Part shown: positions 3,296-52,960 of the stretch, piece by piece | Layout of the letters: every line of letters begins with the position of its first letter | How positions within the stretch are numbered: the stretch's first letter is position 1 | From: an uncultured Bacilli bacterium | GTDB lineage: Bacteria > Bacillota_I > Bacilli_A > RF39 > UBA660 | DNA length: 64,000 bases | Assembly: GCA_944358115.1 (NCBI GenBank) | Contig: CALVQH010000001.1 | Span: 5,263 to 69,262, forward strand | Direction of reading: 5' to 3' | Notes under the pieces: model-generated | The model's database searches: none | Told to the model about the DNA's origin: nothing | What the model saw: only the letters and a program-made list of their open reading frames with translations | Position numbers and translations under genes: made by a program

Positions 3296-3345
3296 AAAAA
3301 TAATTTTATTTATTATAAAATAGTAGAAAGTAAAGGAAGAAAAAT

Positions 3346-5052
3346 ATGAAAAAAAGCACAAAAATAACCCTTTTAGTAGCAGGAGCACTAGTAATATTAT
3401 TGGGAATGATTGGAATAACCTATGCCTTTTTCTCAACAGGAGGAAGTCAAGAACAAGCAAATACTTTTACAAGTGGATGCTTAAATATAAGCTTAACAGA
3501 TGCCTCATCATCAATTAGTTTATCTAATATCTATCCAATTACAGATGTTGAAGGGTTAGAGGGAACTAGTTATGATTTTACAATTACTAATACTTGTAAT
3601 ACTTCTACTAATTATTCCATTAATCTAGAAAGTTTAAATCAAGTATCCAATTCATTAAGTGCAGATTATATTAAAGTAGCACTATCTAGTGATACAGTAG
3701 GAAATGTCATATCAATATTAAGTGACAATACAAGTGTAACACCAGAAATAGATGGAGCTTATGAATCATATAATTTATATACGGGAACACTAGGAGCAAG
3801 TGAAGCAAAAACATATCACTTAAAACTATGGTTAGATTATGATGCAACGGTTGAGCAAGCAGCAAATAAAGTATACTCATCTAAAATAAATGTAATAGCT
3901 AATTCAGAAACACAAGTAGTAGATACATTAGAAGCAACATTTGAACTAAATGATACAACTTTAACATCAAATCTAACAAGTAATGTAACAAGCGCAACAT
4001 ATTGCACTACAACTGATAACATCTGTACACCGGGTACAAGCGCTATAATAGAAGATAATAAATATACAGTTGAAATGGGAAGCAATGCAAATATGCAAAT
4101 GATTTGTACTAAGTTAAATGAAACGAGTAAGTTAATATGTGGAAGCCCTATAAAAATAACAGCAAAAGATATAATATTAGCAGATAACGAAGTTAATGGT
4201 GTGCCAAATTTTAATCAAATTGCAACAGCGGATGAAGGAATGTATACTACACTTGACAATTTAGGAACCAGCTATTACTTTAGAGGGGCAGTCACCAATA
4301 ACTATGTTCAATTTGCAGGATACTACTGGAGAATTATTCGAATTAATGGAGATGACTCAATTCGATTAATTTATGACGGAACAAGTGCTCATGCAAATGG
4401 CGAATCATCCGCGGATAGACAAATTCAAACAAGCGTATATAGTACAAGTCTAAATTATAATTATAGTTACTATGTAGGCTTTACCTATCAAGCAAATACT
4501 CAAAGGCCTTTAGTTCAAAATGAGGAAATATCAAGCACAATTAAAAATGTGTTAGATAATTGGTATACAGAACACTTACAAGAATTTGACAATATTATAA
4601 TAAGTAAACCTGGATTTTGTAATGATAGAAATTCGTATTCTGATGAAAACGGAATAACATCATCATGGGTAGCAAATGGAGCTGTGATTTATTATTCAGC
4701 ATACATAAGAGTAGTAACAAATAAGACTCCTACGTTGCAATGCAATAATAATAGTGATTGGTATATAACTAATATAGGATTAATTACGGCAGACGAAGTA
4801 CTGATGGCTGGTGGTGGATATTTAACTAATAATGATAGTTATTATTTGTATACCGGACAGAATTATTGGACTATGTCTCCTTATAATTTTAATGGCAACA
4901 ATGCTGTTATGTTTGCAGTAGATTTGTATGGGATTCTTGGCTGGGATTATGTCTCTATCGAATGGGGCGTCCGTCCTGTCATCAATCTTTCAGCAGATGT
5001 CACTATTTCCTCGGGAGATGGAACCATAAATAATCCTTATGTAATTGCATAA
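3346..5052 (+). CDS. Secreted protein with SipW-type/TasA-camelysin-like N-terminus and the shared paralog C-terminal domain (paralog 1)
   Basis: MKK...TYAFFSTGG signal peptide plus NTFTSGCLNISL (TasA/camelysin-like). Ser/Thr-rich linker. The C-terminus YYWRIIRINGDDSIRLIYDG...ITADEV...YWTMSPY...GVRPVINL...GDGTINNPYVIA matches the 14166 and 59740 proteins. Confidence 0.7.
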   Translation: MKKSTKITLLVAGALVILLGMIGITYAFFSTGGSQEQANTFTSGCLNISLTDASSSISLSNIYPITDVEGLEGTSYDFTITNTCNTSTNYSINLESLNQVSNSLSADYIKVALSSDTVGNVISILSDNTSVTPEIDGAYESYNLYTGTLGASEAKTYHLKLWLDYDATVEQAANKVYSSKINVIANSETQVVDTLEATFELNDTTLTSNLTSNVTSATYCTTTDNICTPGTSAIIEDNKYTVEMGSNANMQMICTKLNETSKLICGSPIKITAKDIILADNEVNGVPNFNQIATADEGMYTTLDNLGTSYYFRGAVTNNYVQFAGYYWRIIRINGDDSIRLIYDGTSAHANGESSADRQIQTSVYSTSLNYNYSYYVGFTYQANTQRPLVQNEEISSTIKNVLDNWYTEHLQEFDNIIISKPGFCNDRNSYSDENGITSSWVANGAVIYYSAYIRVVTNKTPTLQCNNNSDWYITNIGLITADEVLMAGGGYLTNNDSYYLYTGQNYWTMSPYNFNGNNAVMFAVDLYGILGWDYVSIEWGVRPVINLSADVTISSGDGTINNPYVIA

Positions 5053-5177: not shown

Positions 5178-5873
5178 ATGTTTTTAAGTTTGCTTAGCAT
5201 AATAAAAGATATGCTTTTATTTACCGGGAGTTATTCAAATGGCGTATTTCCAGAACCATTAAAACCAGAAGAAGAAGAAATCGTGATTACAAGAATGTTA
5301 AATGGCGATAAAGAAGCTAGGAATACGTTAATTGAACATAACCTAAGATTAGTCGCTCATATTGTCAAAAAGTTTGATAATTCCTCTTATGATACCGATG
5401 ATTTAATTAGTATTGGTACCATTGGCTTAATTAAAGGAATTGATTCATTTAAAAAAAGCAAAGCAACCAAGATTACAACTTATGCTGCTAGATGTATAGA
5501 AAATGAAATCTTAATGCATTTTCGCAGTAATAAAAAAATAGCAAATACCGTAAGCCTAAATGACTCTATTGGTTTTGACAAAGATGGTGGGGAAGTAAGT
5601 TTAATGGAAATTATCAAAGATGATTCCAAAGATATCGCTGATACTCTTCATTTAAAAGATAATATTGAGTTATTAAAAAAATACTTTCATGTACTAACTG
5701 ATAGAGAAAAAGAGATCCTAATCAAAAGATATGGCTTACTAAATGAAGATGAACACACTCAAAAAGAAATAGCTCGTGATTTAAAAATATCTCGAAGTTA
5801 TGTATCAAGAATTGAAAAAAGAGCATTATCGAAAGTTTTAAAAGAATTTATGAAACAAGATCAAGATTTATAA
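5178..5873 (+). CDS. sigK: Sporulation sigma factor, SigK-like pro-sigma (SigE/SigK family)
   Basis: The pro-sequence ...SYSNGVFPEPLKPEEEE resembles B. subtilis pro-SigK (SYVKNNAFPQPLSSSEE). NLRLVAHIVKKF and DLISIGTIGLIK region-2 motifs. A region-4 HTH is present. Confidence 0.65.
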   Translation: MFLSLLSIIKDMLLFTGSYSNGVFPEPLKPEEEEIVITRMLNGDKEARNTLIEHNLRLVAHIVKKFDNSSYDTDDLISIGTIGLIKGIDSFKKSKATKITTYAARCIENEILMHFRSNKKIANTVSLNDSIGFDKDGGEVSLMEIIKDDSKDIADTLHLKDNIELLKKYFHVLTDREKEILIKRYGLLNEDEHTQKEIARDLKISRSYVSRIEKRALSKVLKEFMKQDQDL

Positions 5874-8017: not shown

Positions 8018-8093
8018 GGTCTGTTGGTGAAGCGGTTAACACATTGCCCTCTCAAGGCAACATTCATGGGTTCAAATCCCATACAGATCACCA
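8018..8093 (+). tRNA. tRNA-Glu (anticodon CUC)
   Basis: Cloverleaf with 7-bp acceptor stem and CCA end. It aligns position-by-position with Bacillus tRNA-Glu. The anticodon loop is CTCTCAA. Confidence 0.75.
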
Positions 8094-11806: not shown

Positions 11807-12102
11807 AGAATTTGCCGAAAAGAAAGTATTTTTCCACATCCAAGTTCAATAGTTTTTGAATTTGGATGTATTTTTTTGATTGTACTTTGAATTTCTCTTA
11901 TTTTTCCTGCTTCATAAAAAGTAAGAACAATAGAATCTTTACTATAATAAGCATCCATAATTTCTTCGCTTAAAAAACTAATTTCTTCAGGAAATAAAGT
12001 TGGTTTTTGGAAAACTTGCTGTTCATCAATTTCTCGAAAAACTTCCTTCGAAGGAATAAGAGATTCGAAAGGCCGCCATTTGACAAAACCACGATCAATC
12101 AT
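11785..12102 (-). CDS. YolD-like protein (UmuD-like accessory of the Y-family polymerase)
   Basis: ~105-aa protein immediately downstream of, and overlapping, the Y-family polymerase gene, as in Bacillus uvrX/yolD and yqjW/yqjX pairs. Confidence 0.45.
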   Translation of the reverse strand: MIDRGFVKWRPFESLIPSKEVFREIDEQQVFQKPTLFPEEISFLSEEIMDAYYSKDSIVLTFYEAGKIREIQSTIKKIHPNSKTIELGCGKILSFRQILHITSSS

Positions 12103-13370
12103 GCACTGTGTCCTCCAATCTTTTTATTTCTTTCATAAATGGTTGAATCTGGAAGTAAACTAGATGCTTTTAAAAGAGCATTTTTTCCATACTTATCTTT
12201 AATTTCTAATATAGCTTGATTAATTTGTTCTTGTTCCTTCACTTTTTCTACTTCATCAAAAATATTTAATTGAACTCCTGTTTTATCTTTAAGTTCACCA
12301 CAAGAAACAGTAACCTTACGAATAGGTAATCCTTCATAAAACTTATCAAAAATCATAAGACAGTTTGCTAAAATAACTTGTTCTACATCAGTTGGATTAT
12401 TAAGCTTGATTTGATGAAAGAACCCACCGCCAACACTTTTAGAATATCCAATTCCAAGTCCAATAACAGAAGTGGTTTTATGGTTTTTATAAAGACGAAT
12501 AGCAATTACTTCAACCATTTCTCGAATAATAATTTTAATATTATCACCATGATAATCTTTAAATAGTACTTGACTATGAGAATAAGATTTATCTTCTACT
12601 TTTCCCATATCTCCAATCCGACTTAAATCAATCCCGTTTGCATGATTCCAAAGCTCTTCGCCAATTACTCCGAATTTTTGTTTTAATTCATGACGATCAA
12701 AATGAGCTAAATCATACATCGAATAAATACCTAGTTTATTGAGATTTGCTTCCATCCTCGGGCCAATTCCCCAAACTCTAGATAGGGGAGAAATGCACCA
12801 TAATTTAGTTGGAATATCATCATAATCCCATTTAGCAATAAAATCTTGATTATGTTTTGCTTCAATATCCATACTAACTTTAGCGAGTAACATATTAGGT
12901 CCAATCCCACAAGTAGCGCATAAGCCAGTAGATTTTTTTACATCTTTTAAAATATCTAAGGCAAGCTCATAATCACTTTTTCCATACATTTTAAGATAGT
13001 CCGTAACATCCAAAAAACATTCATCAATCGAATAAATATGTAAATCTTCTTTTGCAACATATTTTAAATAAACTTCAACAACCTCTCTAGATTTCGCTAA
13101 ATATAGGCTCATTCGTGGTTTTGCAATGGTATATTGAATGTGTTTTGGTATTTGATAAAGTCGTCCTCGAGAGGGAACACCTTTCGTTTTTAGATAAGGA
13201 CTAACAGCTAGAGTAATGGCACCATTACCTTGAGTAGGATTCGCAACCACTAAAGGATAATTAAAAGGATCTAATCCTCTTTCAATACATTCACAACTAG
13301 CAAAAAAACTTTTTAAATCAATACACAAAAAATGTCTGTGTAAATAAACCGTATCCATATGCATCACCAT
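12099..13370 (-). CDS. Y-family DNA polymerase (UmuC/DinB/UvrX-like)
   Basis: LCIDLKSFFASCE catalytic motif (D..FFAS.E). Palm and little-finger regions. Confidence 0.85.
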   Translation of the reverse strand: MVMHMDTVYLHRHFLCIDLKSFFASCECIERGLDPFNYPLVVANPTQGNGAITLAVSPYLKTKGVPSRGRLYQIPKHIQYTIAKPRMSLYLAKSREVVEVYLKYVAKEDLHIYSIDECFLDVTDYLKMYGKSDYELALDILKDVKKSTGLCATCGIGPNMLLAKVSMDIEAKHNQDFIAKWDYDDIPTKLWCISPLSRVWGIGPRMEANLNKLGIYSMYDLAHFDRHELKQKFGVIGEELWNHANGIDLSRIGDMGKVEDKSYSHSQVLFKDYHGDNIKIIIREMVEVIAIRLYKNHKTTSVIGLGIGYSKSVGGGFFHQIKLNNPTDVEQVILANCLMIFDKFYEGLPIRKVTVSCGELKDKTGVQLNIFDEVEKVKEQEQINQAILEIKDKYGKNALLKASSLLPDSTIYERNKKIGGHSA

Positions 13371-13434
13371 AACTTAATTATAAACAAACAATTGTATTAT
13401 ATCAAGCGGTAAATAATGGAAATAAAAAACTAGA

Positions 13435-13890
13435 TTAATTTTTAACCAAATCTAGTTTTATCTCTTCATCGATTTTACCAGTAACAAAATCAGCTGAAAC
13501 ATGAAAGTACTTACAAAAGCCTATAATATAACTCGTAAGAGCAAGATTAATGCCATTTTCATATTTACTAATAGAAGAACGAGTAATATTAAGAATTTTC
13601 GCAAGCTCATCTTGAGTCAAATCATTTTCGCGTCTAATTCTTTTAATTCTTTTAGCAAGTAATTTAGAATCAATTCTTTTACTATTTTCATATTCCCAAA
13701 CTTCAGTAAAACCTAAAACATAATCTAGTGATACATGAAAGATATTACAAAACTTATCTAATTGTCTTAATGGAATTAAATCATTTTCTCTTTCCCACAT
13801 GTTATAACTGTTCCTAGATACTCCTAGAATTTCCGCAACTTCTCTTTGCTTTAAATCAGCATATATTCTTACCTTTTTTAGTCTCATCAT
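13435..13890 (-). CDS. Tandem-HTH XRE-family transcriptional regulator (two HTH_XRE domains)
   Basis: Two repeats of 'L...R...L.Q.ELA..L..S...YS..E.G'. Divergent from paralog 2. Paralogous to 50613-51056 and 59106-59543. Confidence 0.8.
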   Translation of the reverse strand: MMRLKKVRIYADLKQREVAEILGVSRNSYNMWERENDLIPLRQLDKFCNIFHVSLDYVLGFTEVWEYENSKRIDSKLLAKRIKRIRRENDLTQDELAKILNITRSSISKYENGINLALTSYIIGFCKYFHVSADFVTGKIDEEIKLDLVKN

Positions 13891-14165: not shown

Positions 14166-15380
14166 ATGGAGTTCGAAACTTTAAAACAAAGTCATTTAAA
14201 AAGAAATATTATGATAGGAGTAGTAGCAGTACTAATTATTAGTGCCGTAGTACTAAATTTTACCAGAGCAAAATACCGAGTGACACAATCAATACCTTTA
14301 GTCAATGGTACAATCAATTATAGTTTAGCAGACCTAAATATTGTAGCACTATACATTGATGGAGTAGCAGCTGACGAATTAGATAGTTCTAAAAATTATA
14401 CACTAGATACCGATCAAAGTACATGCACCTACAAAGATGGTAGCACAATTCAAAATTTAACATTAAATTATGATAGTGATACCAAAACATTTACGATTGC
14501 TCCTTATACAACCAAGGGAACAAAGTGTACATTGTATTTTGATGAACAAAAGATACCAGCAGTAGATGTAATAGAAGAAGCTTATAACACTAATCCAAAC
14601 ATGTTAGCATATGATGATTATGGAAATTTAAGATACATAGGAGCAGACCCAAATAATTATGTTTTATTTAATAATGAATTATGGAGGATCATAGGAGTAT
14701 TTAGTGAAGATACACATGGAGTAAGTGGAGAAAAATTAGTAAAAATAATTAGAAGTGAATCAATAGGAAGTATAGAATGGGATAGTGGTAACGTAAATGA
14801 TTGGTCCACAGCCAGTTTACAAACAACATTGAATGGGGATTATTTAAATGGAAGTGGAAGCTATGCTAGTACTGGGATAAAAAGTGATACAGCAAGAAAT
14901 ATGATTGAAACGGTAACATGGAAACTTGGTGGAAGAGCAAGTTATACAAGTTCCAGTAATGGACTAGCAAGTCATTTTTATGGATATGAAAGAGGAACAA
15001 CAGTATATAGTGGAAGACCAACAACATGGAGTGGAAAAGTAGCATTAATGTATCCAAGTGATTATGGATATGCCACAAGTGGAGGTTCAACAACAAATAG
15101 AGAAGCATGCCTAGCCAAAGAGTTGTACAACTGGGATTCGTCAAGTTTTAGCGATTGCAAGAACAATGACTGGCTTTATGATAGCAGTACATATCAATGG
15201 ACACTTACGCCGGGCTCGTCGCGTTCGGACTACGTCTTCCTTGTGGGCAAGCCTGGTTTTGTGGGCCGCAGCAATGCGAGCTACTCGAGCGAGGTCCGTC
15301 CTTCGGTATATCTAACATCGAATGTGAAAATCTCAGGAGGTGATGGAACTAGTAATAGTCCATACACTTTGGAGGTGTGA
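14166..15380 (+). CDS. Signal-anchored surface protein, paralog 2 of the GVRP-domain family
   Basis: N-terminal TM followed by TRAKYRVTQSIPLVNGTINYSLADLNIVA, nearly identical to the 59740 protein. The C-terminus LWRIIGVF...GVRPSVYL...GGDGTSNSPYTLEV is shared. The last ~200 nt are unusually GC-rich. Confidence 0.7.
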   Translation: MEFETLKQSHLKRNIMIGVVAVLIISAVVLNFTRAKYRVTQSIPLVNGTINYSLADLNIVALYIDGVAADELDSSKNYTLDTDQSTCTYKDGSTIQNLTLNYDSDTKTFTIAPYTTKGTKCTLYFDEQKIPAVDVIEEAYNTNPNMLAYDDYGNLRYIGADPNNYVLFNNELWRIIGVFSEDTHGVSGEKLVKIIRSESIGSIEWDSGNVNDWSTASLQTTLNGDYLNGSGSYASTGIKSDTARNMIETVTWKLGGRASYTSSSNGLASHFYGYERGTTVYSGRPTTWSGKVALMYPSDYGYATSGGSTTNREACLAKELYNWDSSSFSDCKNNDWLYDSSTYQWTLTPGSSRSDYVFLVGKPGFVGRSNASYSSEVRPSVYLTSNVKISGGDGTSNSPYTLEV

Positions 15381-15449
15381 TAAGGCTCGCAGGAAGAGGG
15401 AAGTCTTCCCGAGCCGGCGCCACTTATCCACAGGTAGGAAGTAGTAAAA

Positions 15450-15734
15450 GTGGGAATATATAATAGATATTATATTGCTAAGAAAAAACATCAAGAATAT
15501 CTTATTGTGATTATAAGAAAAGGAAAATATGTTTCTTATGGTATTGATGCTCTCATACTAAAACATTTAAAGACAAATGTGAATATAGAGCATCAACTAC
15601 AAGAAAAACATATTAATTATCTAATATTAGATAATTTAGATATTATAAGTAAATATGCTGATGAAAATAATCAGTATAATAAATATTTTTATTTAGAAAC
15701 AATTAGAAAAATATTAAATAAAATTGTAGGGTAA
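15450..15734 (+). CDS. Small ORF with MutS domain-I-like (mismatch-binding) N-terminal signature; possible gene remnant
   Basis: YYIAKKKHQEYLIVIIRKGKYVSYGIDA resembles MutS [28 protein letters not shown]. GTG start, weak RBS. Confidence 0.35.
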   Translation: MGIYNRYYIAKKKHQEYLIVIIRKGKYVSYGIDALILKHLKTNVNIEHQLQEKHINYLILDNLDIISKYADENNQYNKYFYLETIRKILNKIVG

Positions 15735-15751
15735 GTATTAGTAAAAAACCG

Positions 15752-15856
15752 AACTCGTCGAATTCGAACAACGTCTTCAATGTGAACAATACTGGTTATG
15801 TGAACAACAACAACAATGCGAACAACTCGAACGGGGTCCGTCCTAGAGCTTTCTAA
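15752..15856 (+). pseudogene. Degenerate partial copy of the 3' end of the 14166-15380 gene
   Basis: ~75% nt identity to 15214-15320. Translates to SSNSNNVFNVNNTGYVNNNNNANNSNGVRPRAF* versus the gene's SSRSDYVFLVGKPGFVGRSNASYSSEVRPSVYL. Differences are mostly G/C in the gene versus A in the copy. Confidence 0.6.
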
Positions 15857-15997
15857 TAATCGGGATTTTATGGTTAAGACTATAATTTGTGTATGTTAGA
15901 AAACATTACTTATCCTAAGGCTTAGCCTTGAATAACATATATGGATGGAAAGTGATACGTCACTTTCCTAGTACTATATATTAAGAAAAAAATTAAA

Positions 15998-16357
15998 ATG
16001 AAATTTGTAACAATTAGAAAAATGGGTTTATTTTATCAAGTATTTGATGATGATGCTTTCATATTGCATTATTTATTAGATTATAAAGTAATAGATAGGA
16101 AAGCAGGCTTTCCCAATAATGCAATTAATAAAGTAATAAATATTTTGGAAGCAAAAAAAATTAATTATAAGATTATTGGCGAGAATATAACAAAAGATTT
16201 TAAAGATTTAAATAAATATGCTTTTTATTTAGCAAAATCTAAAGACAAAATAGTTGTTCAAAATTTAATTCATAATATTGAATTAAAATTGGAAGAAAAA
16301 GATGAAAGCGAGTTGCTTCAAATATTAGAAGGAATTGAAAAACTGGTGAATGAATAA
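15998..16357 (+). CDS. Small ORF with MutS domain-I-like signature (119 aa)
   Basis: IRKMGLFYQVFDDDAFILHYLL...AGFPNNA...KKINYKIIGEN parallels MutS [15 protein letters not shown]...GVPYHS...KGYKVAICEQ. Confidence 0.4.
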   Translation: MKFVTIRKMGLFYQVFDDDAFILHYLLDYKVIDRKAGFPNNAINKVINILEAKKINYKIIGENITKDFKDLNKYAFYLAKSKDKIVVQNLIHNIELKLEEKDESELLQILEGIEKLVNE

Positions 16358-16461
16358 TGAGTTTCGAATTGTAAAAAATATGAAGCAATTTATTTTATCT
16401 CTAGATTCTTTTTTATCTTATAGGAAAGTACACGAAAAACGTGTATTTTTAAAACTTATTC

Positions 16462-16490
16462 TTGACGAACGTATGTATTTACAGTATAAT
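16462..16490 (+). promoter_or_regulatory. Sigma-70-type promoter for tnpB
   Basis: TTGACG, 17-nt spacer, TATAAT; about 20 nt upstream of the GGGGTGA RBS. Confidence 0.6.
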
Positions 16491-16509
16491 ACTATTATCA
16501 GGGGTGATT

Positions 16510-17652
16510 ATGATTATGAAAATACACAGGGCATATCAATTTCGTTTGTATCCAACAAAAGAACAAGAAGTAATTATTCGTAAAACATTTAGATGTACGA
16601 GATTTGTTTATAATTATTGTTTAGATTTAAAAAAGAAAAATAATTATTTAACTAAGTTTGACTTAATGAAAGAATTACCAAAATTAAAAAAAGAATATCC
16701 CTTTTTAAAAGAAATAGATAGTTGTTCCTTACAAAATGCCATTACAGATTTAATGGTAGGTTTTAGATTGTTTGAAAAAGGCCATGGAGGATATCCTAAG
16801 TTTAAGAAAAAAGGAGTAAAAGAAAGTTTCCGTACTAGTTTTATTACTAGTAGTTATAAAGGTACAATTTATGAAAATATAAAACTAGATTTAAAAAGAA
16901 GAATCATTGAATTACCAAAAATAAAAGAGATTAAAATAAGAGGATATCGTAATTTAGATAAGATTAGTGGAAGAATACTAAATGCCACGATAAGAGAAGT
17001 AGGCACTAGATTTTATGTGTCTGTATGTGTAGAAGAAGAAATCAAGTTACCAGAAAGAAAAAATAATCAAGCAGTAGGAATCGATATAGGAGTAAAGAAC
17101 TTAGTTGTAACAAGTAATAAAGAATATTATGGGAATCCCCGATATTTAGAAAAATATGAAAAAAAGATAAAAAGATTCCAACAAGAATTATCAAGAAAAA
17201 TAAAGGGAAGTAAAAACTATATTAAGTGTAAGAAAAAATTAGAAGAAGTATATCGAAAGCTAAAAAATGCAAGAAAAAAGACAGTAGAAGAAATAGTAGC
17301 CAAAATAATAGCCTTACATGATATTATTATTGCCGAGAATCTCCAAGTAAAGAAAATGTTAGAGCATAAAAATAACCACAAACATTTACGAAAAGAAATC
17401 ACAAATGCTACATTTAGTGAAATCATAAGAGTACTCAAATATAAGTGCAACTGGTTAAATAAGATATTTATTCAAGTAAATCCCTATTATGCAAGTAGTC
17501 AGATTTGTAGTGGATGTGGAAATAAAGAAAGTATTATGAAAGATATAAGAGTAAGAGAATATAAATGTAGTAAATGTGGTTTAGAAATAGAGAGAGATTA
17601 CAATGCAAGTTTGAATATATTAAAAGAAGGATTAAGATGTTACAATAATTAA
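16510..17652 (+). CDS. tnpB: TnpB (IS605 OrfB family RNA-guided endonuclease)
   Basis: N-terminal MKIHRAYQFRLYPTKEQ (OrfB_IS605 N-terminus). RuvC-like core. C-terminal zinc finger CSGCG...CSKCG. RBS GGGGTGA before ATG 16510. Confidence 0.85.
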   Translation: MIMKIHRAYQFRLYPTKEQEVIIRKTFRCTRFVYNYCLDLKKKNNYLTKFDLMKELPKLKKEYPFLKEIDSCSLQNAITDLMVGFRLFEKGHGGYPKFKKKGVKESFRTSFITSSYKGTIYENIKLDLKRRIIELPKIKEIKIRGYRNLDKISGRILNATIREVGTRFYVSVCVEEEIKLPERKNNQAVGIDIGVKNLVVTSNKEYYGNPRYLEKYEKKIKRFQQELSRKIKGSKNYIKCKKKLEEVYRKLKNARKKTVEEIVAKIIALHDIIIAENLQVKKMLEHKNNHKHLRKEITNATFSEIIRVLKYKCNWLNKIFIQVNPYYASSQICSGCGNKESIMKDIRVREYKCSKCGLEIERDYNASLNILKEGLRCYNN

Positions 17653-17770
17653 ATTAAATGAAAATAAAGAAAGAAAGTACGGGAGCAACTCTCGGAGTTT
17701 ATGTCTGTGATGTATTAAAATACAGCAGAAAAAAACGAATCGTGAGGTTCGGCGAATTAACGTAAGTTAA
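17600..17770 (+). ncRNA. Candidate TnpB-associated guide (omega-RNA) / IS right-end region
   Basis: Structured segment spanning the 3' end of tnpB and ~120 nt downstream. Stem-loops such as ctgtgatgtatt-aaa-atacagcag and the near-palindrome ttcggcgaa. By analogy to IS605-family omega-RNAs only. Confidence 0.25.
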
Positions 17771-18199
17771 TTCTTATGTTCTTTAAATAGATTAGACCAT
17801 TATATTATTCACAATTTACATTTAAAGTATTATGTTCGATATATGGATGACTTTTTAATATTTCATCATGACAAATATTATTTGGAAGAATGTCTAATTA
17901 AAATAAAATATCAATTAAATAACATTTATCATTTGAATATTAATGAAAATAAAACAAAGATAATTAATACAAAAGAAGGATTCGTCTTATTAGGTTATTA
18001 TTTTAAAATAAGAAATAAAAAGACAATAATAAAACAAACATGGAATAAAGTACAAAAAAGAATAAAAGATAGTAATGATTTATATAATAAAAAGCAAATA
18101 ACTTTTTCCAAATATTTTTCATCTATTAATAATTATCGCTTTACTTTTAAATATTCTAATAATCATAAAATAACAAAATATATTGAAAGAAATTATTAG
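17771..18199 (+). pseudogene. 5'-truncated reverse transcriptase (retron/group-II/Abi-like RT, C-terminal part only)
   Basis: The frame opens right after a stop at 17768 and reads ...NRLDHYIIHNLHLKYYVRYMDDFLIF (RT motif 5, YxDD), then LNINENKTKI (motif 6) and GFVLLGYYF (motif 7). No fingers/palm motifs 1-4 and no start codon. Confidence 0.65.
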
Positions 18200-32621: not shown

Positions 32622-32890
32622 TGGAAAAAGAAGATATTATTACACTTGAAGATAATACCGAGTATATGGTGCTAGATACAGCTCTTTTAAATCAAGAAAA
32701 ATATTTATATTGTGTGCGAATAGATGAAGAAGAAAAACCAACAAGTGAATATAAATATTTTAAAGAGATTAATGAAAATAATGAATTATTCACGGAAGAA
32801 GTAGAAGATGAAGTCGTGATTGAAACCATTACTTCTATGTTCGCCGCTGATTATTTAAATAGTGTAACAGACGAAGAACAAGACGTTTAA
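32621..32890 (+). CDS. DUF1292-like small acidic protein
   Basis: MEKEDIITLEDNTEYMVLDT...YLYCVRIDEE pattern. Confidence 0.45.
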   Translation: MEKEDIITLEDNTEYMVLDTALLNQEKYLYCVRIDEEEKPTSEYKYFKEINENNELFTEEVEDEVVIETITSMFAADYLNSVTDEEQDV

Positions 32891-32894
32891 AAGG

Positions 32895-33080
32895 AAAACT
32901 AAAAAAGAGACTTGATGGTTGGTGAAAAATCAAGAGTAGAACTTTTAAAAAATCACTTGGGAGTCGAATATTTGATAAGTAAAATATTACGTAACTTTGC
33001 GTTAAAAAGAAAAAGAGAAAAATAAAGGTGGTACCGCGCATAAAACTTGCGCCCTTTGGTGCTACCTTTTTTGTGTAAAA
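32895..33080 (+). promoter_or_regulatory. T-box riboswitch leader controlling ileS
   Basis: Conserved T-box sequence AAAGGTGGTACCGCG at 33024-33038 overlapping a terminator (gcgccctttggtgctacc plus T6). Candidate AUC specifier at 32929-32931. Confidence 0.75.
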
Positions 33081-33093
33081 AGAAGGAGGAAAT

Positions 33094-36000
33094 ATGAAAA
33101 ATTTTAAAGATTTAGACAAACGTAACGTAAATTTAGTAGAAAAGGATATAAGGGATTACTGGGATAAAATAGATATCCTAAAAAGAAGTATTGAAACGAG
33201 AGATAAAGAAAATAACTTTGTTTTCTATGATGGACCAGCAACCGCAAATGGTATGCCAGGACTTCATCATATGGTAGCAAAATTCTTAAAAGATACATTC
33301 TGCAAATATGAAACAATGAAAGGAAAAAGAGTAATAAGAAAAATTGGTTGGGATACCCATGGCTTACCCGTGGAAGTTCAAGTTGAAAAGAAACTTGGGT
33401 TTACTGGCAAAGGTGACATTGAAAAATACGGAATTAAAGAATTTAATCAAAAATGCCGCGAAACTGTTTGGGAAAATGAAGATGCTTTCTCTAGACTAAC
33501 CAAAGAAATGGGACAATTCATTGATTTAGAGCATCCCTACATCACGTATAATAATGACTATATCGAAACGGAGTGGTGGATCTTAAAGAAATTCTTTGAT
33601 GAAGGATTATTCTATGAAGGTCTAAAAATTTTACCATATTGTCCTAGATGTGGTACCGGTCTTGCCTCACATGAAGTTCAACAAGGCTATAAAGAAGTAG
33701 AGGTAGATACAGTCATCGTTCCTTTTAAAAGAGTAGATAAAGATGAATATTTCTTAGTTTGGACAACTACTCCATGGACCTTAATTGCTAATGTTGCTTT
33801 ATGTGTTCATCCCGATGAAGATTATGTACTAGTAGAATCAAAAGGTTATAAATTTATTTTAGCTGCTAAATTAGCATCAACTGTTTTAGGCGAAGAATAC
33901 ACCGTTTTAGATACATTTAAAGGTAGTACCCTAGAAAATGTTGGTTATGAGCAATTGATACCAAGCTTGTCAGTTAATAAAAAAGCATTCTATGTAACGT
34001 GTGATACGTATGTAACCATGGAAGATGGAACGGGTATTGTTCACATTGCTCCTGCTTTTGGTGCGGATGATTATGAAGTAGGAAGACGTTATAATTTGCC
34101 AATTTTAAATCCAGTTGGTGATGATGGCTGTTATACGGAAGGATTATGGAAGGGAATGTTTGTCTTTGATGCGGATAAAGAAGTCATTAAATATTTAAAA
34201 GAAAATGATAAATTATTCAAAAAAATTCACATGACTCATAACTATCCTCATTGTTGGCGTTGTAATACTCCACTCATCTATTATTCAAAACCAAGTTATT
34301 ATTTAGAGATTACTAAAATAAAGGATAAAATTGTAGAAAATAATAAAAAGGTAAATTGGTACCCAGATTATGTCGGTGAAAAAAGATTTGGCAACTGGCT
34401 AGAAAACTTAAATGACTGGGCTATTTCTAGAAGTCGTTATTGGGGAACTCCACTACCACTTTGGAGATGTGAATGTGGCCATATGGATATGATTGGTTCC
34501 CGCACAGAATTAGTTGAAAAAGCGATTGAAGAAATTGATGAATCCATTGATTTACACCGTCCATATGTTGATGATGTTCATATCAAGTGTCCAAAATGTG
34601 GTAAAGTAATGAGTCGTACGCCAGAAGTAATTGACTGTTGGTTCGATAGTGGAGCAATGCCTTTTGCTCAATATCATTATCCATTTGAAAACATGGATAT
34701 CTTTGAATCTCAATTTCCAGCTGACTTCATTTGTGAAGGAATTGATCAAACCAGAGGTTGGTTCTATTCTTTAATTGTTATTGGTACTTTTGTAAAAGGT
34801 GTAAGTCCTTATAAAAATGTATTAGTAAACGAATTATTACTAGATAAACATGGTAAAAAAATGCATAAATCAAAAGGCAATGCAATTGAACCATTTAGCT
34901 TGATGGAGCGTTTCGGTGTAGATACTATTCGTTGGTACTTACCTTATACTTCTCCTGTATGGACCCCAATCAAGTTTGATGAAGATGGCTTAAAAGAAGT
35001 ATATTCAAAATTCTTTAATCCCCTAAGAAATACTTATAATTTCTTTCAATTATATGCCAATACCGATCATATTGATATTGATGAATGTAAAGTAGCTTAT
35101 GAAGATTTAGAAGAAATTGATAAATGGTTATTATCAAAATATCATAATCTATTAAAATATGTAATCGAATCTTATGATGAATATGATTTAAATAAAGTAG
35201 TAAAGAGTATTACTAACTTTGTATCAGAGGATCTATCAAACTGGTATATTAGAAGAAATAGAAGTCGCTATTGGGGTAGTGAGCTTAATAATTCCAAAAA
35301 AGCCGTTTATAGTACAACTTATGAAGTTTTAGTGGGTGTATGTAAAATGATCGCTCCCGTAATTCCATATTTAAGCGAAGAATTATATCGTAATCTAACG
35401 GGAGAAGAATCTGTTCATCTAGCATATTTCCCTAAATACAATACAGAATATATTGATCTAAAACTAGAAGAAAAAATGGATACAGTAAGAACCCTAATTA
35501 GTATTGGCCGAAATGTTCGTGAAGAAGCGAAAATTAAGGTCAGAGAACCACTTTCAGAATGTTTATTAAACGCTGATTTAAAAGACTTAATCTCTGATTT
35601 AAAAGATTTAATCTTAGAAGAATTAAATGTCAAAGAAGTAGTCTTTGCCAGTGATTTAAATAAATACATGAGTTTCTTTGTAAAGCCAAACTTTAAAGTA
35701 GCTGGACCTGTATTTGGATCTAACATTCAAGTATTTAGTAATATTCTAGCCAATTTAACCGAAGAAGAAATTACAACTTTAAATAAAGGAGAAACCATTC
35801 ATATCACGATAGATGATACAGAATATGAAATTGATTCAAGCTATACCGATATTCGTATTAATGCCAAAGAAGGATACAATGTAGGCATGGAAAATAATTT
35901 ATTTGTTATTTTAAATACTGTACGTAGTGAAGAATTAATTTTAGAAGGAATTGCTCGTGAATTTGTATCTAAAGTTCAAAATATAAGAAAGAAAGAAGAT

Positions 36001-36186
36001 TACAATGTAGCAGATCGTATTACTATCGCTTATCATGGTGATGAGGTAGTTAAAAAATCAGTAGAAATGTTTGAAGATTATATCAAGAGTGAAACATTAA
36101 CTACGAAAATTACTTATCAAGAAGAAATAAAAGATGATCTAGATCTAAATGGTCATCAAGCTGGAATTACGACAAAGAGAGTTTAG
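33094..36186 (+). CDS. ileS: Isoleucine--tRNA ligase (long, type-2-like form)
   Basis: HIGH-region PGLHHMVAKF, WAISRSRYWGTPLP, KMHKSKGN (KMSKS), C-terminal Zn-ribbon CPKCG. 1030 aa. Confidence 0.85.
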   Translation: MKNFKDLDKRNVNLVEKDIRDYWDKIDILKRSIETRDKENNFVFYDGPATANGMPGLHHMVAKFLKDTFCKYETMKGKRVIRKIGWDTHGLPVEVQVEKKLGFTGKGDIEKYGIKEFNQKCRETVWENEDAFSRLTKEMGQFIDLEHPYITYNNDYIETEWWILKKFFDEGLFYEGLKILPYCPRCGTGLASHEVQQGYKEVEVDTVIVPFKRVDKDEYFLVWTTTPWTLIANVALCVHPDEDYVLVESKGYKFILAAKLASTVLGEEYTVLDTFKGSTLENVGYEQLIPSLSVNKKAFYVTCDTYVTMEDGTGIVHIAPAFGADDYEVGRRYNLPILNPVGDDGCYTEGLWKGMFVFDADKEVIKYLKENDKLFKKIHMTHNYPHCWRCNTPLIYYSKPSYYLEITKIKDKIVENNKKVNWYPDYVGEKRFGNWLENLNDWAISRSRYWGTPLPLWRCECGHMDMIGSRTELVEKAIEEIDESIDLHRPYVDDVHIKCPKCGKVMSRTPEVIDCWFDSGAMPFAQYHYPFENMDIFESQFPADFICEGIDQTRGWFYSLIVIGTFVKGVSPYKNVLVNELLLDKHGKKMHKSKGNAIEPFSLMERFGVDTIRWYLPYTSPVWTPIKFDEDGLKEVYSKFFNPLRNTYNFFQLYANTDHIDIDECKVAYEDLEEIDKWLLSKYHNLLKYVIESYDEYDLNKVVKSITNFVSEDLSNWYIRRNRSRYWGSELNNSKKAVYSTTYEVLVGVCKMIAPVIPYLSEELYRNLTGEESVHLAYFPKYNTEYIDLKLEEKMDTVRTLISIGRNVREEAKIKVREPLSECLLNADLKDLISDLKDLILEELNVKEVVFASDLNKYMSFFVKPNFKVAGPVFGSNIQVFSNILANLTEEEITTLNKGETIHITIDDTEYEIDSSYTDIRINAKEGYNVGMENNLFVILNTVRSEELILEGIAREFVSKVQNIRKKEDYNVADRITIAYHGDEVVKKSVEMFEDYIKSETLTTKITYQEEIKDDLDLNGHQAGITTKRV

Positions 36187-50339: not shown

Positions 50340-50416
50340 TGGTCGGGAAGACAGGATTTGAACCTGCGACCCCTTGGTCCCAAACCAAGTGCACTACCAA
50401 ATTGTGCTACTTCCCG
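50340..50416 (-). tRNA. tRNA-Pro (anticodon UGG)
   Basis: CGGGAAGTAGCACAAT...anticodon loop TTTGGGA...CCA, read on the minus strand. Confidence 0.85.
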
Positions 50417-50424
50417 ATAATTAA

Positions 50425-50501
50425 TGGTGCGCCCTAAGGGAGTCGAACCCCTAACCTTTAGATCCGTAGTCTAACGCTCTATCCAATTGAGCTAAGGGCG
50501 C
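50425..50501 (-). tRNA. tRNA-Arg (anticodon ACG)
   Basis: GCGCCCTTAGCTCAATTGGATAGAGCGTTAGACTACGGATCTAAAGG...CCA closely matches Bacillus tRNA-Arg(ACG). Confidence 0.85.
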
Positions 50502-52883: not shown

Positions 52884-52960
52884 TGGGGAATTAGCTCAGT
52901 TGGCTAGAGCATCACGCTTGCACCGTGAGGGTCGCGGGTTCGAGTCCCACATTCTCCACC
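52884..52960 (+). tRNA. tRNA-Ala (anticodon UGC)
   Basis: GGGGAAT acceptor with a G3:U70 pair, anticodon loop CTTGCAC, CCA end. Confidence 0.85.

Follow-up and report, generated by a model that had tools for sequence, protein, structure and literature searches.

Two small MutS-like genes in an inactivated diversity-generating retroelement of an uncultured Bacilli bacterium

Why do two small open reading frames (ORFs) with a likeness to the mismatch-binding domain I of MutS lie far from any mutS gene, next to a tnpB gene and the remains of a reverse transcriptase (RT)? The question was raised by a 64,000-nt stretch of DNA from an uncultured Bacilli bacterium (GTDB lineage Bacteria; Bacillota_I; Bacilli_A; RF39; UBA660), positions 5,263 to 69,262 of the forward strand of contig CALVQH010000001.1 in GenBank assembly GCA_944358115.1. 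This whole stretch is called the window below. Both ORFs were confirmed as given in an initial annotation of the window, including the peptides quoted there. The first, orfA (15450-15734, + strand), has a GTG start and encodes 94 residues with an isoelectric point (pI) of 9.44, while the second, orfB (15998-16357, + strand), has an ATG start and encodes 119 residues with a pI of 6.75. I conclude, with a probability of roughly 80%, that both belong as accessory genes to a chromosomal diversity-generating retroelement (DGR) which is now inactive in the window. OrfB is a typical short-form Msl, the MutS-like accessory protein of DGRs, and consists of a MutS domain I core and two C-terminal helices. 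Judged by its sequence, orfA is a diverged, cryptic, and basic Msl paralogue. The initial annotation saw the MutS resemblance rightly but missed the DGR, that is, the pair of repeats flanked by both ORFs.

A retroelement broken by an insertion

Two G+C-rich islands in this AT-rich stretch (15210-15302 and 15749-15844) are direct repeats of one another. The upstream copy (+ strand) closes a gene of 404 codons (14166-15380, + strand) whose product has an N-terminal membrane anchor; it lies in the C-terminal part (last 60 codons) and ends in a G+C-rich sequence, GGTCCGTCC, resembling an initiation of mutagenic homing (IMH) site. The downstream copy (+ strand) lies between orfA and orfB and is Asn-rich (AAC/AAT) when read in the frame of the upstream copy. 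Over 93 aligned positions, 20 of the 30 adenines of the downstream copy are altered in the upstream one, compared with 2 of the 63 other bases; a wider alignment of the two gives a Fisher p value of 3e-9 for the adenine bias. All 30 adenines occupy codon positions 1 or 2, and the translation in the frame of the 404-codon gene is PNSSNSNNVFNVNNTGYVNNNNNANNSNGVRP. Since adenine-specific differences together with such a codon-position pattern are the signature of DGRs, 15749-15844 is the template repeat (TR) and 15210-15302 is the variable repeat (VR) of a DGR. The 404-codon gene, whose 3′ end holds the VR, is thus the target (variable-protein) gene of the DGR.

Is this pattern found elsewhere? 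The relatives compared in this study are metagenomic contigs and contigs of metagenome-assembled genomes (MAGs) from uncultured gut Bacilli, kin of Candidatus Caccenecus, with loci labelled L001-L028. The adenine-specific pattern is also present in L001 and L008/9. When eight related strains are compared, the VR differs in patchwork fashion and precisely where the TR has adenines, whereas the 100 nt on its flanks hardly vary. The target gene is syntenic in all relatives, and its homologues show weak Pfam DUF6273 matches over the VR region. The relatives share a chromosomal order of HTS, YolD, a UmuC-like Y-family polymerase, an XRE regulator, the cassette, and a DNA-alkylation-repair gene. A complete cassette has the target gene with the VR, orfA, the TR, orfB, bAvd (106-113 residues), and the RT (352-356 residues) in this order. 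Both avd and the RT gene are intact in L001, L010, and L015. Intact Avd matches Pfam bAvd and NCBIfam DivGenRetAVD, and the RT matches RVT_1. No HRDC match was found in any cassette gene of the window or the relatives.

What remains of avd and the RT gene in the window? It was found that only the first 22 codons of avd are left (16350-16415, + strand; recognized by phmmer against the intact Avd of L001) and that they read through into an insert. The insert is a TnpB-only IS605-family element of 1363 bp (16416-17778, + strand), whose tnpB ORF (16462-17652) encodes 396 residues with the Pfam domains OrfB_IS605, Cas12f1-like_TNB, and HTH_OrfB_IS605. It is followed by a remnant of the DGR RT (17779-18199, + strand), comprising the C-terminal ~140 residues and beginning just before the YMDD motif (VRYMDDFL). 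The remnant matches the C-terminus of Pfam RVT_1 (E = 1e-5), a PHROG RT (E = 7e-16), and the intact RT of L001 (phmmer, 3.5e-51). Homology with the intact loci (compared with L001, L015, L016, L018, and L010) ends at 16415 and restarts at 17779. The TnpB element stands in place of 885 bp, which encoded Avd after residue 22 and the first two-thirds of the RT. A functional RT and a functional Avd are lacking in the window, and no further RT or TnpB ORF was found there. Since both orfA and orfB flank the TR of the VR/TR pair, the neighbouring RT is the DGR's own. The site had been described as a TnpB/RT graveyard, and TnpB and RT sequences are indeed present, but the RT belongs to the cassette and was broken by one insertion element; it is not unrelated debris.

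The cassette is therefore dead in the window, where orfA, orfB, the TR, and the VR are left as intact relics. The inactivation is recent. L017, a MAG contig of Bacilli bacterium HGM10802, carries the same TnpB insertion, while other relatives whose orfB is ~98% identical (protein level; ~93-96% for the cassette DNA) keep the genes intact. Among the relatives, decay of this chromosomal DGR has set in many separate times. Frameshifts split the RT gene in L002/3, L016, and L019 and disrupt Msl in L018. L004-6 have lost avd and the RT gene by deletion, and in contigs L012-14, from Candidatus Caccenecus avistercoris, the deletion takes in the whole stretch from the TR through the RT. Positions 1-55 of L001 are 89% identical to 17716-17771 of the window, which is the right end of this TnpB element, and lie at the end of an unrelated part of that contig. 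Thus, the TnpB element occurs at more than one place in this lineage.

Two non-coding segments of the cassette may belong to its machinery. A G+C-rich inverted repeat (GGCTCG..GGAAGA/TCTTCC..CGAGCC; 15384-15415, fold z = -2.3) directly follows the stop codon of the target gene and is kept in all relatives. GC-rich repeats downstream of the IMH are known for about one third of DGRs, and this one is a candidate target-recognition hairpin or terminator. The non-coding spacer on the 3′ side of the TR (15845-15997, + strand) has several hairpins (fold z = -2.9; 0 of 200 shuffled sequences fold as well) and is presumably part of the DGR RNA. By its likeness to the BPP-1 spacer, it may have a role in priming. 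No Rfam family was found within the cassette.

The VR and the TR also differ in length. The VR is 3 nt shorter in the window (between 15263 and 15264, opposite TR positions 15803-15805) and 6 nt longer in L008 (3830-3928). Every length change lies inside an (AAC)n run, which suggests slippage on the repeat during the synthesis or integration of the complementary DNA (cDNA).

The target protein has relatives in the window. A 455-residue ORF at 59707-61074 (+ strand) matches it over the N-terminal ~200 residues, that is, the membrane anchor and the first domain (45% identity, E = 2e-45), and has no VR; a third, weaker relative is encoded at 3334-5049 (+ strand). Thus, the target is a member of a small surface-protein family, and it alone in this family is diversified. 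Directly upstream of the target gene and divergent from it (12099-13890, - strand) lie the genes for a UmuC-like Y-family DNA polymerase with IMS domains and a tandem helix-turn-helix XRE regulator. This pair has the same position in L001, L008, L010, and L012, and a YolD-like gene lies alongside in relatives.

The two MutS-like genes and their pairing

Pfam MutS_I (PF01624) is the top match of both ORFs, but single-sequence scans fall below its cut-off of 20.6 bits, only just for orfB (19.5 bits, E = 0.0012) and more clearly for orfA (13.3 bits, E = 0.098). No match for either ORF was found in NCBIfam and PHROGs, and no homologue was found in a phage collection. Is the likeness to MutS real? 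For orfB it is. Pfam MutS_I matches all 12 close homologues of orfB (best E = 4.6e-6). An AlphaFold2 model of orfB (mean pLDDT, the predicted local distance difference test, of 93.5) has the order beta-beta-alpha-beta-alpha-beta-beta followed by two long helices, and the best 50 Foldseek matches of this model in the PDB are all domain I of MutS, MSH6, or MSH3 (~60 residues, root-mean-square deviation 1.2-2 Å, 22-29% identity). An exhaustive profile search with orfB returned 801 representative clusters at E <= 1e-3, nearly all of them stand-alone proteins of ~120 residues. I built an Msl profile from 71 diverse proteins, including orfB itself and three close homologues of it. Used as a hidden Markov model (HMM), this profile picks out two of the 744 ORFs of the window and no others, namely orfB (E = 1.4e-41) and orfA (E = 1.2e-4). 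The two ORFs had been said to lie far from mutS, and this holds inside the window, which has a mutL fragment at 19-1590 and no MutS-like ORF besides orfA and orfB.

The link from Msl to MutS was seen from several sides. A long-form Msl is 38-46% identical to the N-termini of genuine 900-residue MutS proteins, a joint alignment gives a common register, and the Msl profile also matches MSH6 and the N-termini of canonical MutS. P0180, a long-form Msl, was used for a metagenome scan and retrieved canonical mutS genes, not Msl cassettes. Against PDB sequences, the deep Msl profile matched MSH6 only (E = 0.051), and narrow profiles of 12 and 15 close homologues gave no MutS match. The mismatch-intercalating Phe of MutS, here called the wedge Phe (Phe12 in orfB), is invariant in all 71 sampled Msl proteins, and so is the G-F-P strand. 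In the joint alignment, orfB lacks the N-terminal helix and retains the Phe and the G-F-P strand. It was rightly observed in the initial annotation that the Glu of the Phe-x-Glu motif is absent from orfB, which reads F12-Y-Q14; the Glu is kept in 10 of the 71 Msl proteins. Both ORF products stop one or two helices past domain I, and their relatives are equally small; they do not have the full architecture of MutS or MSH proteins, in which connector, lever/clamp, and ABC ATPase domains follow domain I.

OrfB thus belongs, as an ordinary member, to a family with a published description. Stand-alone MutS-domain-I proteins had been supposed to be undescribed, but they are already known as MSL or Msl, a class of DGR accessory proteins (PMC5758913; bioRxiv 10.1101/2024.11.15.621889). 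The ratio of nonsynonymous to synonymous substitution rates (dN/dS) of orfB is mostly ~0.1-0.2 at dS 0.3-0.8, indicating purifying selection. The possibility of a frameshifted full-length mutS is contradicted by the relatives, which keep separate genes of ~95 and ~120 codons under purifying selection; no full-length mutS was found at the orfA/orfB locus in any of them.

What, then, is orfA? Its direct Pfam signal is weak, as given above, and its pairwise BLASTP comparison with orfB is not significant. However, hhalign of 44 orfA-family sequences with the 71 Msl sequences gave a probability of 94.4% (E = 8.5e-8, 66 columns). Shallow alignments gave 1% and 26% in the same register. Thus, the MutS-domain-I likeness ascribed to orfA stands at the level of profiles. 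The two ORFs cover the same domain in hhalign and in the joint alignment, which makes them paralogues, as had been proposed, rather than parts of a single gene. The orfA-family profile matches more than 40 of 150 Msl representatives, and the long-form ones are matched colinearly over the full length. Pfam MutS_I matches 3 of 15 and 4 of 44 orfA relatives. Motifs common to orfA and Msl are IRK-G-(F)Y, DA-IL, INY-I, and N-Y-KY. OrfA keeps the N-terminal helix, YNRYYIAKKKHQEY, which is the segment that was paired with MutS in the initial annotation. Compared with long-form Msl, the position of the wedge Phe is deleted and ~14 residues including the G-F-P strand are lost.

The orfA family comprises 199 proteins of 90-100 residues, found with a profile that includes distant members from L019 and L020, whose cassettes hold orfA-like ORFs. 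They have neither a Pfam domain nor a name in their source, and they are basic (mean pI 9.5 +/- 0.3; 9.4 for orfA). The dN/dS of orfA is 0.09-0.5, mostly 0.1-0.2 at dS 0.3-0.8, which again indicates purifying selection. An AlphaFold2 model from a shallow alignment is poor (pLDDT 54), while its order of secondary structures is colinear with that of orfB minus one strand. The orfA-family profile found nothing relevant among PDB sequences. Nor is orfA an Avd. It has no bAvd or DivGenRetAVD match, and a genuine bAvd follows orfB in all intact relatives.

Do the two genes belong together? All intact cassettes examined have an orfA-type gene besides Msl, bAvd, and the RT, although it occupies three different places relative to the TR and the RT gene. 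It lies before the TR in the clade of the window, after the RT in L019, and after the TR and immediately before Msl in L020-L024, where 4-nt overlaps of start and stop codons run through to the RT gene. Two cassettes, L027 (5634-6893) and L028 (5170-6432), have three MutS-domain-I-type genes each, in the order of a 127-residue MutS_I protein (28.5 bits, above the Pfam cut-off), a 92-residue orfA-type protein, the TR, a 119-residue Msl, bAvd, and the RT. Furthermore, the natural protein P0113 (225 residues) has both kinds of domain fused in one chain, the orfA type at residues 1-83 and the Msl type at residues 106-221. Since the two genes are co-inherited despite rearrangement, translationally coupled, and once fused, orfA and orfB probably work together. 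Most likely, they act jointly as an asymmetric pair.

Elsewhere in the window, there are a T-box leader (32865-33059, + strand) upstream of a 1030-residue ORF (33094-36186) and four tRNA genes (8018-8090, 50343-50501, 52885-52958). Spore-germination genes at 62091-63962, together with the mutL fragment, indicate that the host is a spore-forming member of Bacillota.

A possible role of the pair

DGR biology has yet to explain how mutagenised cDNA enters the target gene and how the heteroduplex so formed comes through mismatch repair. In MutS, the Phe wedge is a device for binding mismatches in duplex DNA, and in MSH6/MSH2 only one partner carries the Phe-x-Glu motif, just as only one of the two protomers of bacterial MutS contacts the mismatch. 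In the orfA-orfB pair, the wedge Phe is likewise retained in one partner only, namely orfB. By analogy, the pair might form an asymmetric dimer comparable to two MutS protomers or to MSH6/MSH2. Retrohoming is thought to pass through a heteroduplex of the mutagenised cDNA and the parental VR. OrfA and orfB might bind the densely mismatched intermediate of mutagenic retrohoming, most plausibly this cDNA:VR heteroduplex. The pair would mask rather than signal, because the MutS parts for ATP hydrolysis and MutL signalling are absent. An inert pair, with no ATPase and no MutL-recruiting part, could keep the heteroduplex out of sight of host MutS until the new VR has been fixed by replication. Deletion of host mutS raised the output of a Bacteroides DGR 5-10 fold in an all-or-nothing manner; this was the DGR Bov, which is not among the three that the study lists as encoding Msl (bioRxiv 10.1101/2024.11.15.621889). 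The heterodimer, its substrate, and its role against mismatch repair form a tentative proposal, which I regard as possible rather than probable. Stated in full, with the Phe-bearing orfB type and the Phe-less basic orfA type forming a dedicated ATPase-free 'mini-MutS' heterodimer that protects the cDNA:VR heteroduplex from host repair or biases that repair, the model is doubtful. The initial annotation had offered two guesses, pseudogene debris or a small module for binding mismatched or branched DNA. The latter is the nearer one, the DNA binding itself being what I infer.

Several observations weigh against the interpretation given here. The window and L017 have the same dead RT yet different VRs. 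They are 98-100% identical over 15303-17933 (99% in the TR). Within 14518-15302, the VRs are just 75% identical, and the body of the target gene differs in dense patches of 25-37 differences per 100 nt. This divergence despite a dead RT most likely reflects either the exchange of target alleles by recombination or the activity of an RT in trans. L025/26 have an orfA-like gene without Msl, avd, or RT. The direct link of orfA to MutS is not significant by the Pfam match or the profile search of PDB sequences, and a model with a pLDDT of 54 makes a fold search meaningless; as far as sequences tell, the relation is transitive, via Msl. On its own, MutS domain I is not known to be a good DNA binder. 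Lastly, MutS is reported to be dispensable for BPP-1 retrohoming (PMC5758913).

Could the pair act at another step? The same Msl pair may serve cDNA synthesis, binding the RNA:cDNA hybrid or the primer-template together with RT and Avd and aiding adenine misincorporation or mismatch extension. The translational coupling of the genes to avd and the RT gene in one operon would fit this, as would the basic character that orfA shares with Avd (pI 9.5) and the three RTs reported to have a MutS_I-like C-terminal extension (PMC5758913). On the other hand, most DGRs, BPP-1 among them, mutagenise adenines by RT and Avd alone, and the wedge Phe conserved in Msl is, in MutS, made for mismatches in duplex DNA. 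I would give this step odds well short of even. It is less likely that the pair redirects host repair, marking the heteroduplex so that the cDNA strand is copied into the parental strand. For such a choice of strand, a module that binds mismatches and carries additional C-terminal helices could serve as an adaptor, and the Bacteroides data point to all-or-nothing repair of VR heteroduplexes (bioRxiv 10.1101/2024.11.15.621889). But no MutL- or beta-clamp-interaction motif was identified in the pair, and deletion of mutS raises, not lowers, the output of Bov, with the reservation made above that Bov is not listed as Msl-encoding.

Two further alternatives deny part of the identity itself. OrfA might be unrelated to MutS, a small basic nucleic-acid-binding accessory that is Avd-like by its position between the VR and the TR, with a purely compositional similarity to Msl (AT-rich DNA; Lys, Asn, and Ile). 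The insignificant BLASTP comparison with orfB, the Pfam MutS_I E value of ~0.1, the poor model, and the shallow hhalign probabilities of 1-26% would agree with this. It is nevertheless quite improbable. The deep hhalign result has the same register as the shallow runs, the alignment with long-form Msl is colinear over the full length with common motifs, the Msl HMM singles out orfA from 742 other ORFs of the same composition, and the true bAvd sits elsewhere in the cassette. Still harder to credit is the view that both ORFs are functionless debris of a mutS paralogue or a mobile element. An insertion element and a truncated RT do adjoin them, and the cassette is dead in the window. But both frames are unbroken and conserved (dN/dS 0.1-0.2), both families are wide and of uniform size, the synteny with avd and the RT gene is maintained, and the relatives have no full-length mutS in this place. 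These results refute pseudogene debris as an account of the genes. It holds only in the narrow sense that they have been orphaned here by the loss of the RT.

If the Msl pair is a protective mini-MutS heterodimer after all, it would account for the ability of some DGRs to evade the all-or-nothing restriction by MutS known from Bacteroides. The orfA-type family, with its 199 or more unannotated proteins, would then have to be counted as a fifth class of DGR accessory proteins. Msl has been named, but a functional study of it was not found in the searchable literature. Nor were the orfA-type family, its recognition as degenerate Msl, or the obligate pairing and fusion found there, although the candidates of Wu et al. 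(e.g. PAG1-4, 16 MSL DGRs) may already include some of these proteins. In the DGR clade of gut Bacilli described here, Msl is a conserved pair with complementary losses, the halves can be fused, and the wedge Phe is the sole MutS contact residue that is always kept. This gives a concrete and testable model, and unannotated genes of ~95 codons can now be named as DGR components. As for the window itself, an insertion sequence has broken an element of a known kind, which is an ordinary finding. The gain for its annotation is that two 'hypothetical proteins' and an apparent junkyard have become a recognisable, recently inactivated DGR.

Comparison with known systems

How does the pair compare with the published accessory proteins? 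MSL (MutS-like) is one of four classes of DGR accessory genes, with 112-283 residues and a pI of 7.2 +/- 1.7; as defined by Wu et al. 2018 (PMC5758913), it is related to MutS, always found with avd, and never with HRDC. Like the MSL or Msl proteins of Architecture D of Wu et al. 2018 and of the Bacteroides DGRs Bfr, Bth, and Bun, orfB is a small, stand-alone homologue of MutS domain I. It lies inside a DGR cassette beside the TR and the RT gene, with avd present and HRDC not found, and both its length (119 residues) and its pI (6.75) are within the published ranges. In contrast, orfA (94 residues, pI 9.44) is outside the ranges of size and charge and invisible to Pfam MutS_I. The presence of a second, far more diverged paralogue next to Msl also differs from the published cases, as does the TR lying between both genes in the clade of the window.

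The comparison with canonical MutS is similarly mixed. The fold and the register of domain I are retained (G-x-F-Y, DDA, G-x-P, and (I/V)-x-(I/V)-x-E/D), and every Msl sampled has the wedge Phe. Unlike MutS, the proteins have no domains II-V and thus no clamp, ATPase, or MutL coupling; the Glu is mostly lost, and orfB has extra C-terminal helices. Even within domain I, orfB is without the first helix and orfA is without the Phe and the G-x-P strand. The combination of a Phe-bearing and a Phe-less protein may be likened to MSH6/MSH2 and to the mismatch-contacting and non-contacting protomers of MutS.

OrfA also invites comparison with Avd and bAvd. It is small and basic, and it lies between the VR and the TR, where cassettes of the BPP-1 type carry avd. 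Unlike Avd, it has no bAvd or DivGenRetAVD match, and a separate avd, of which 22 codons are left in the window, follows orfB. As for the insert, its 396-residue protein, its hairpin-forming ends, and the lack of tnpA are like those of the TnpB-only elements of the IS605 family (IS1341-like). The TnpB element is not a part of the Msl system but the agent that destroyed avd and the RT gene, with a deletion of 885 bp.

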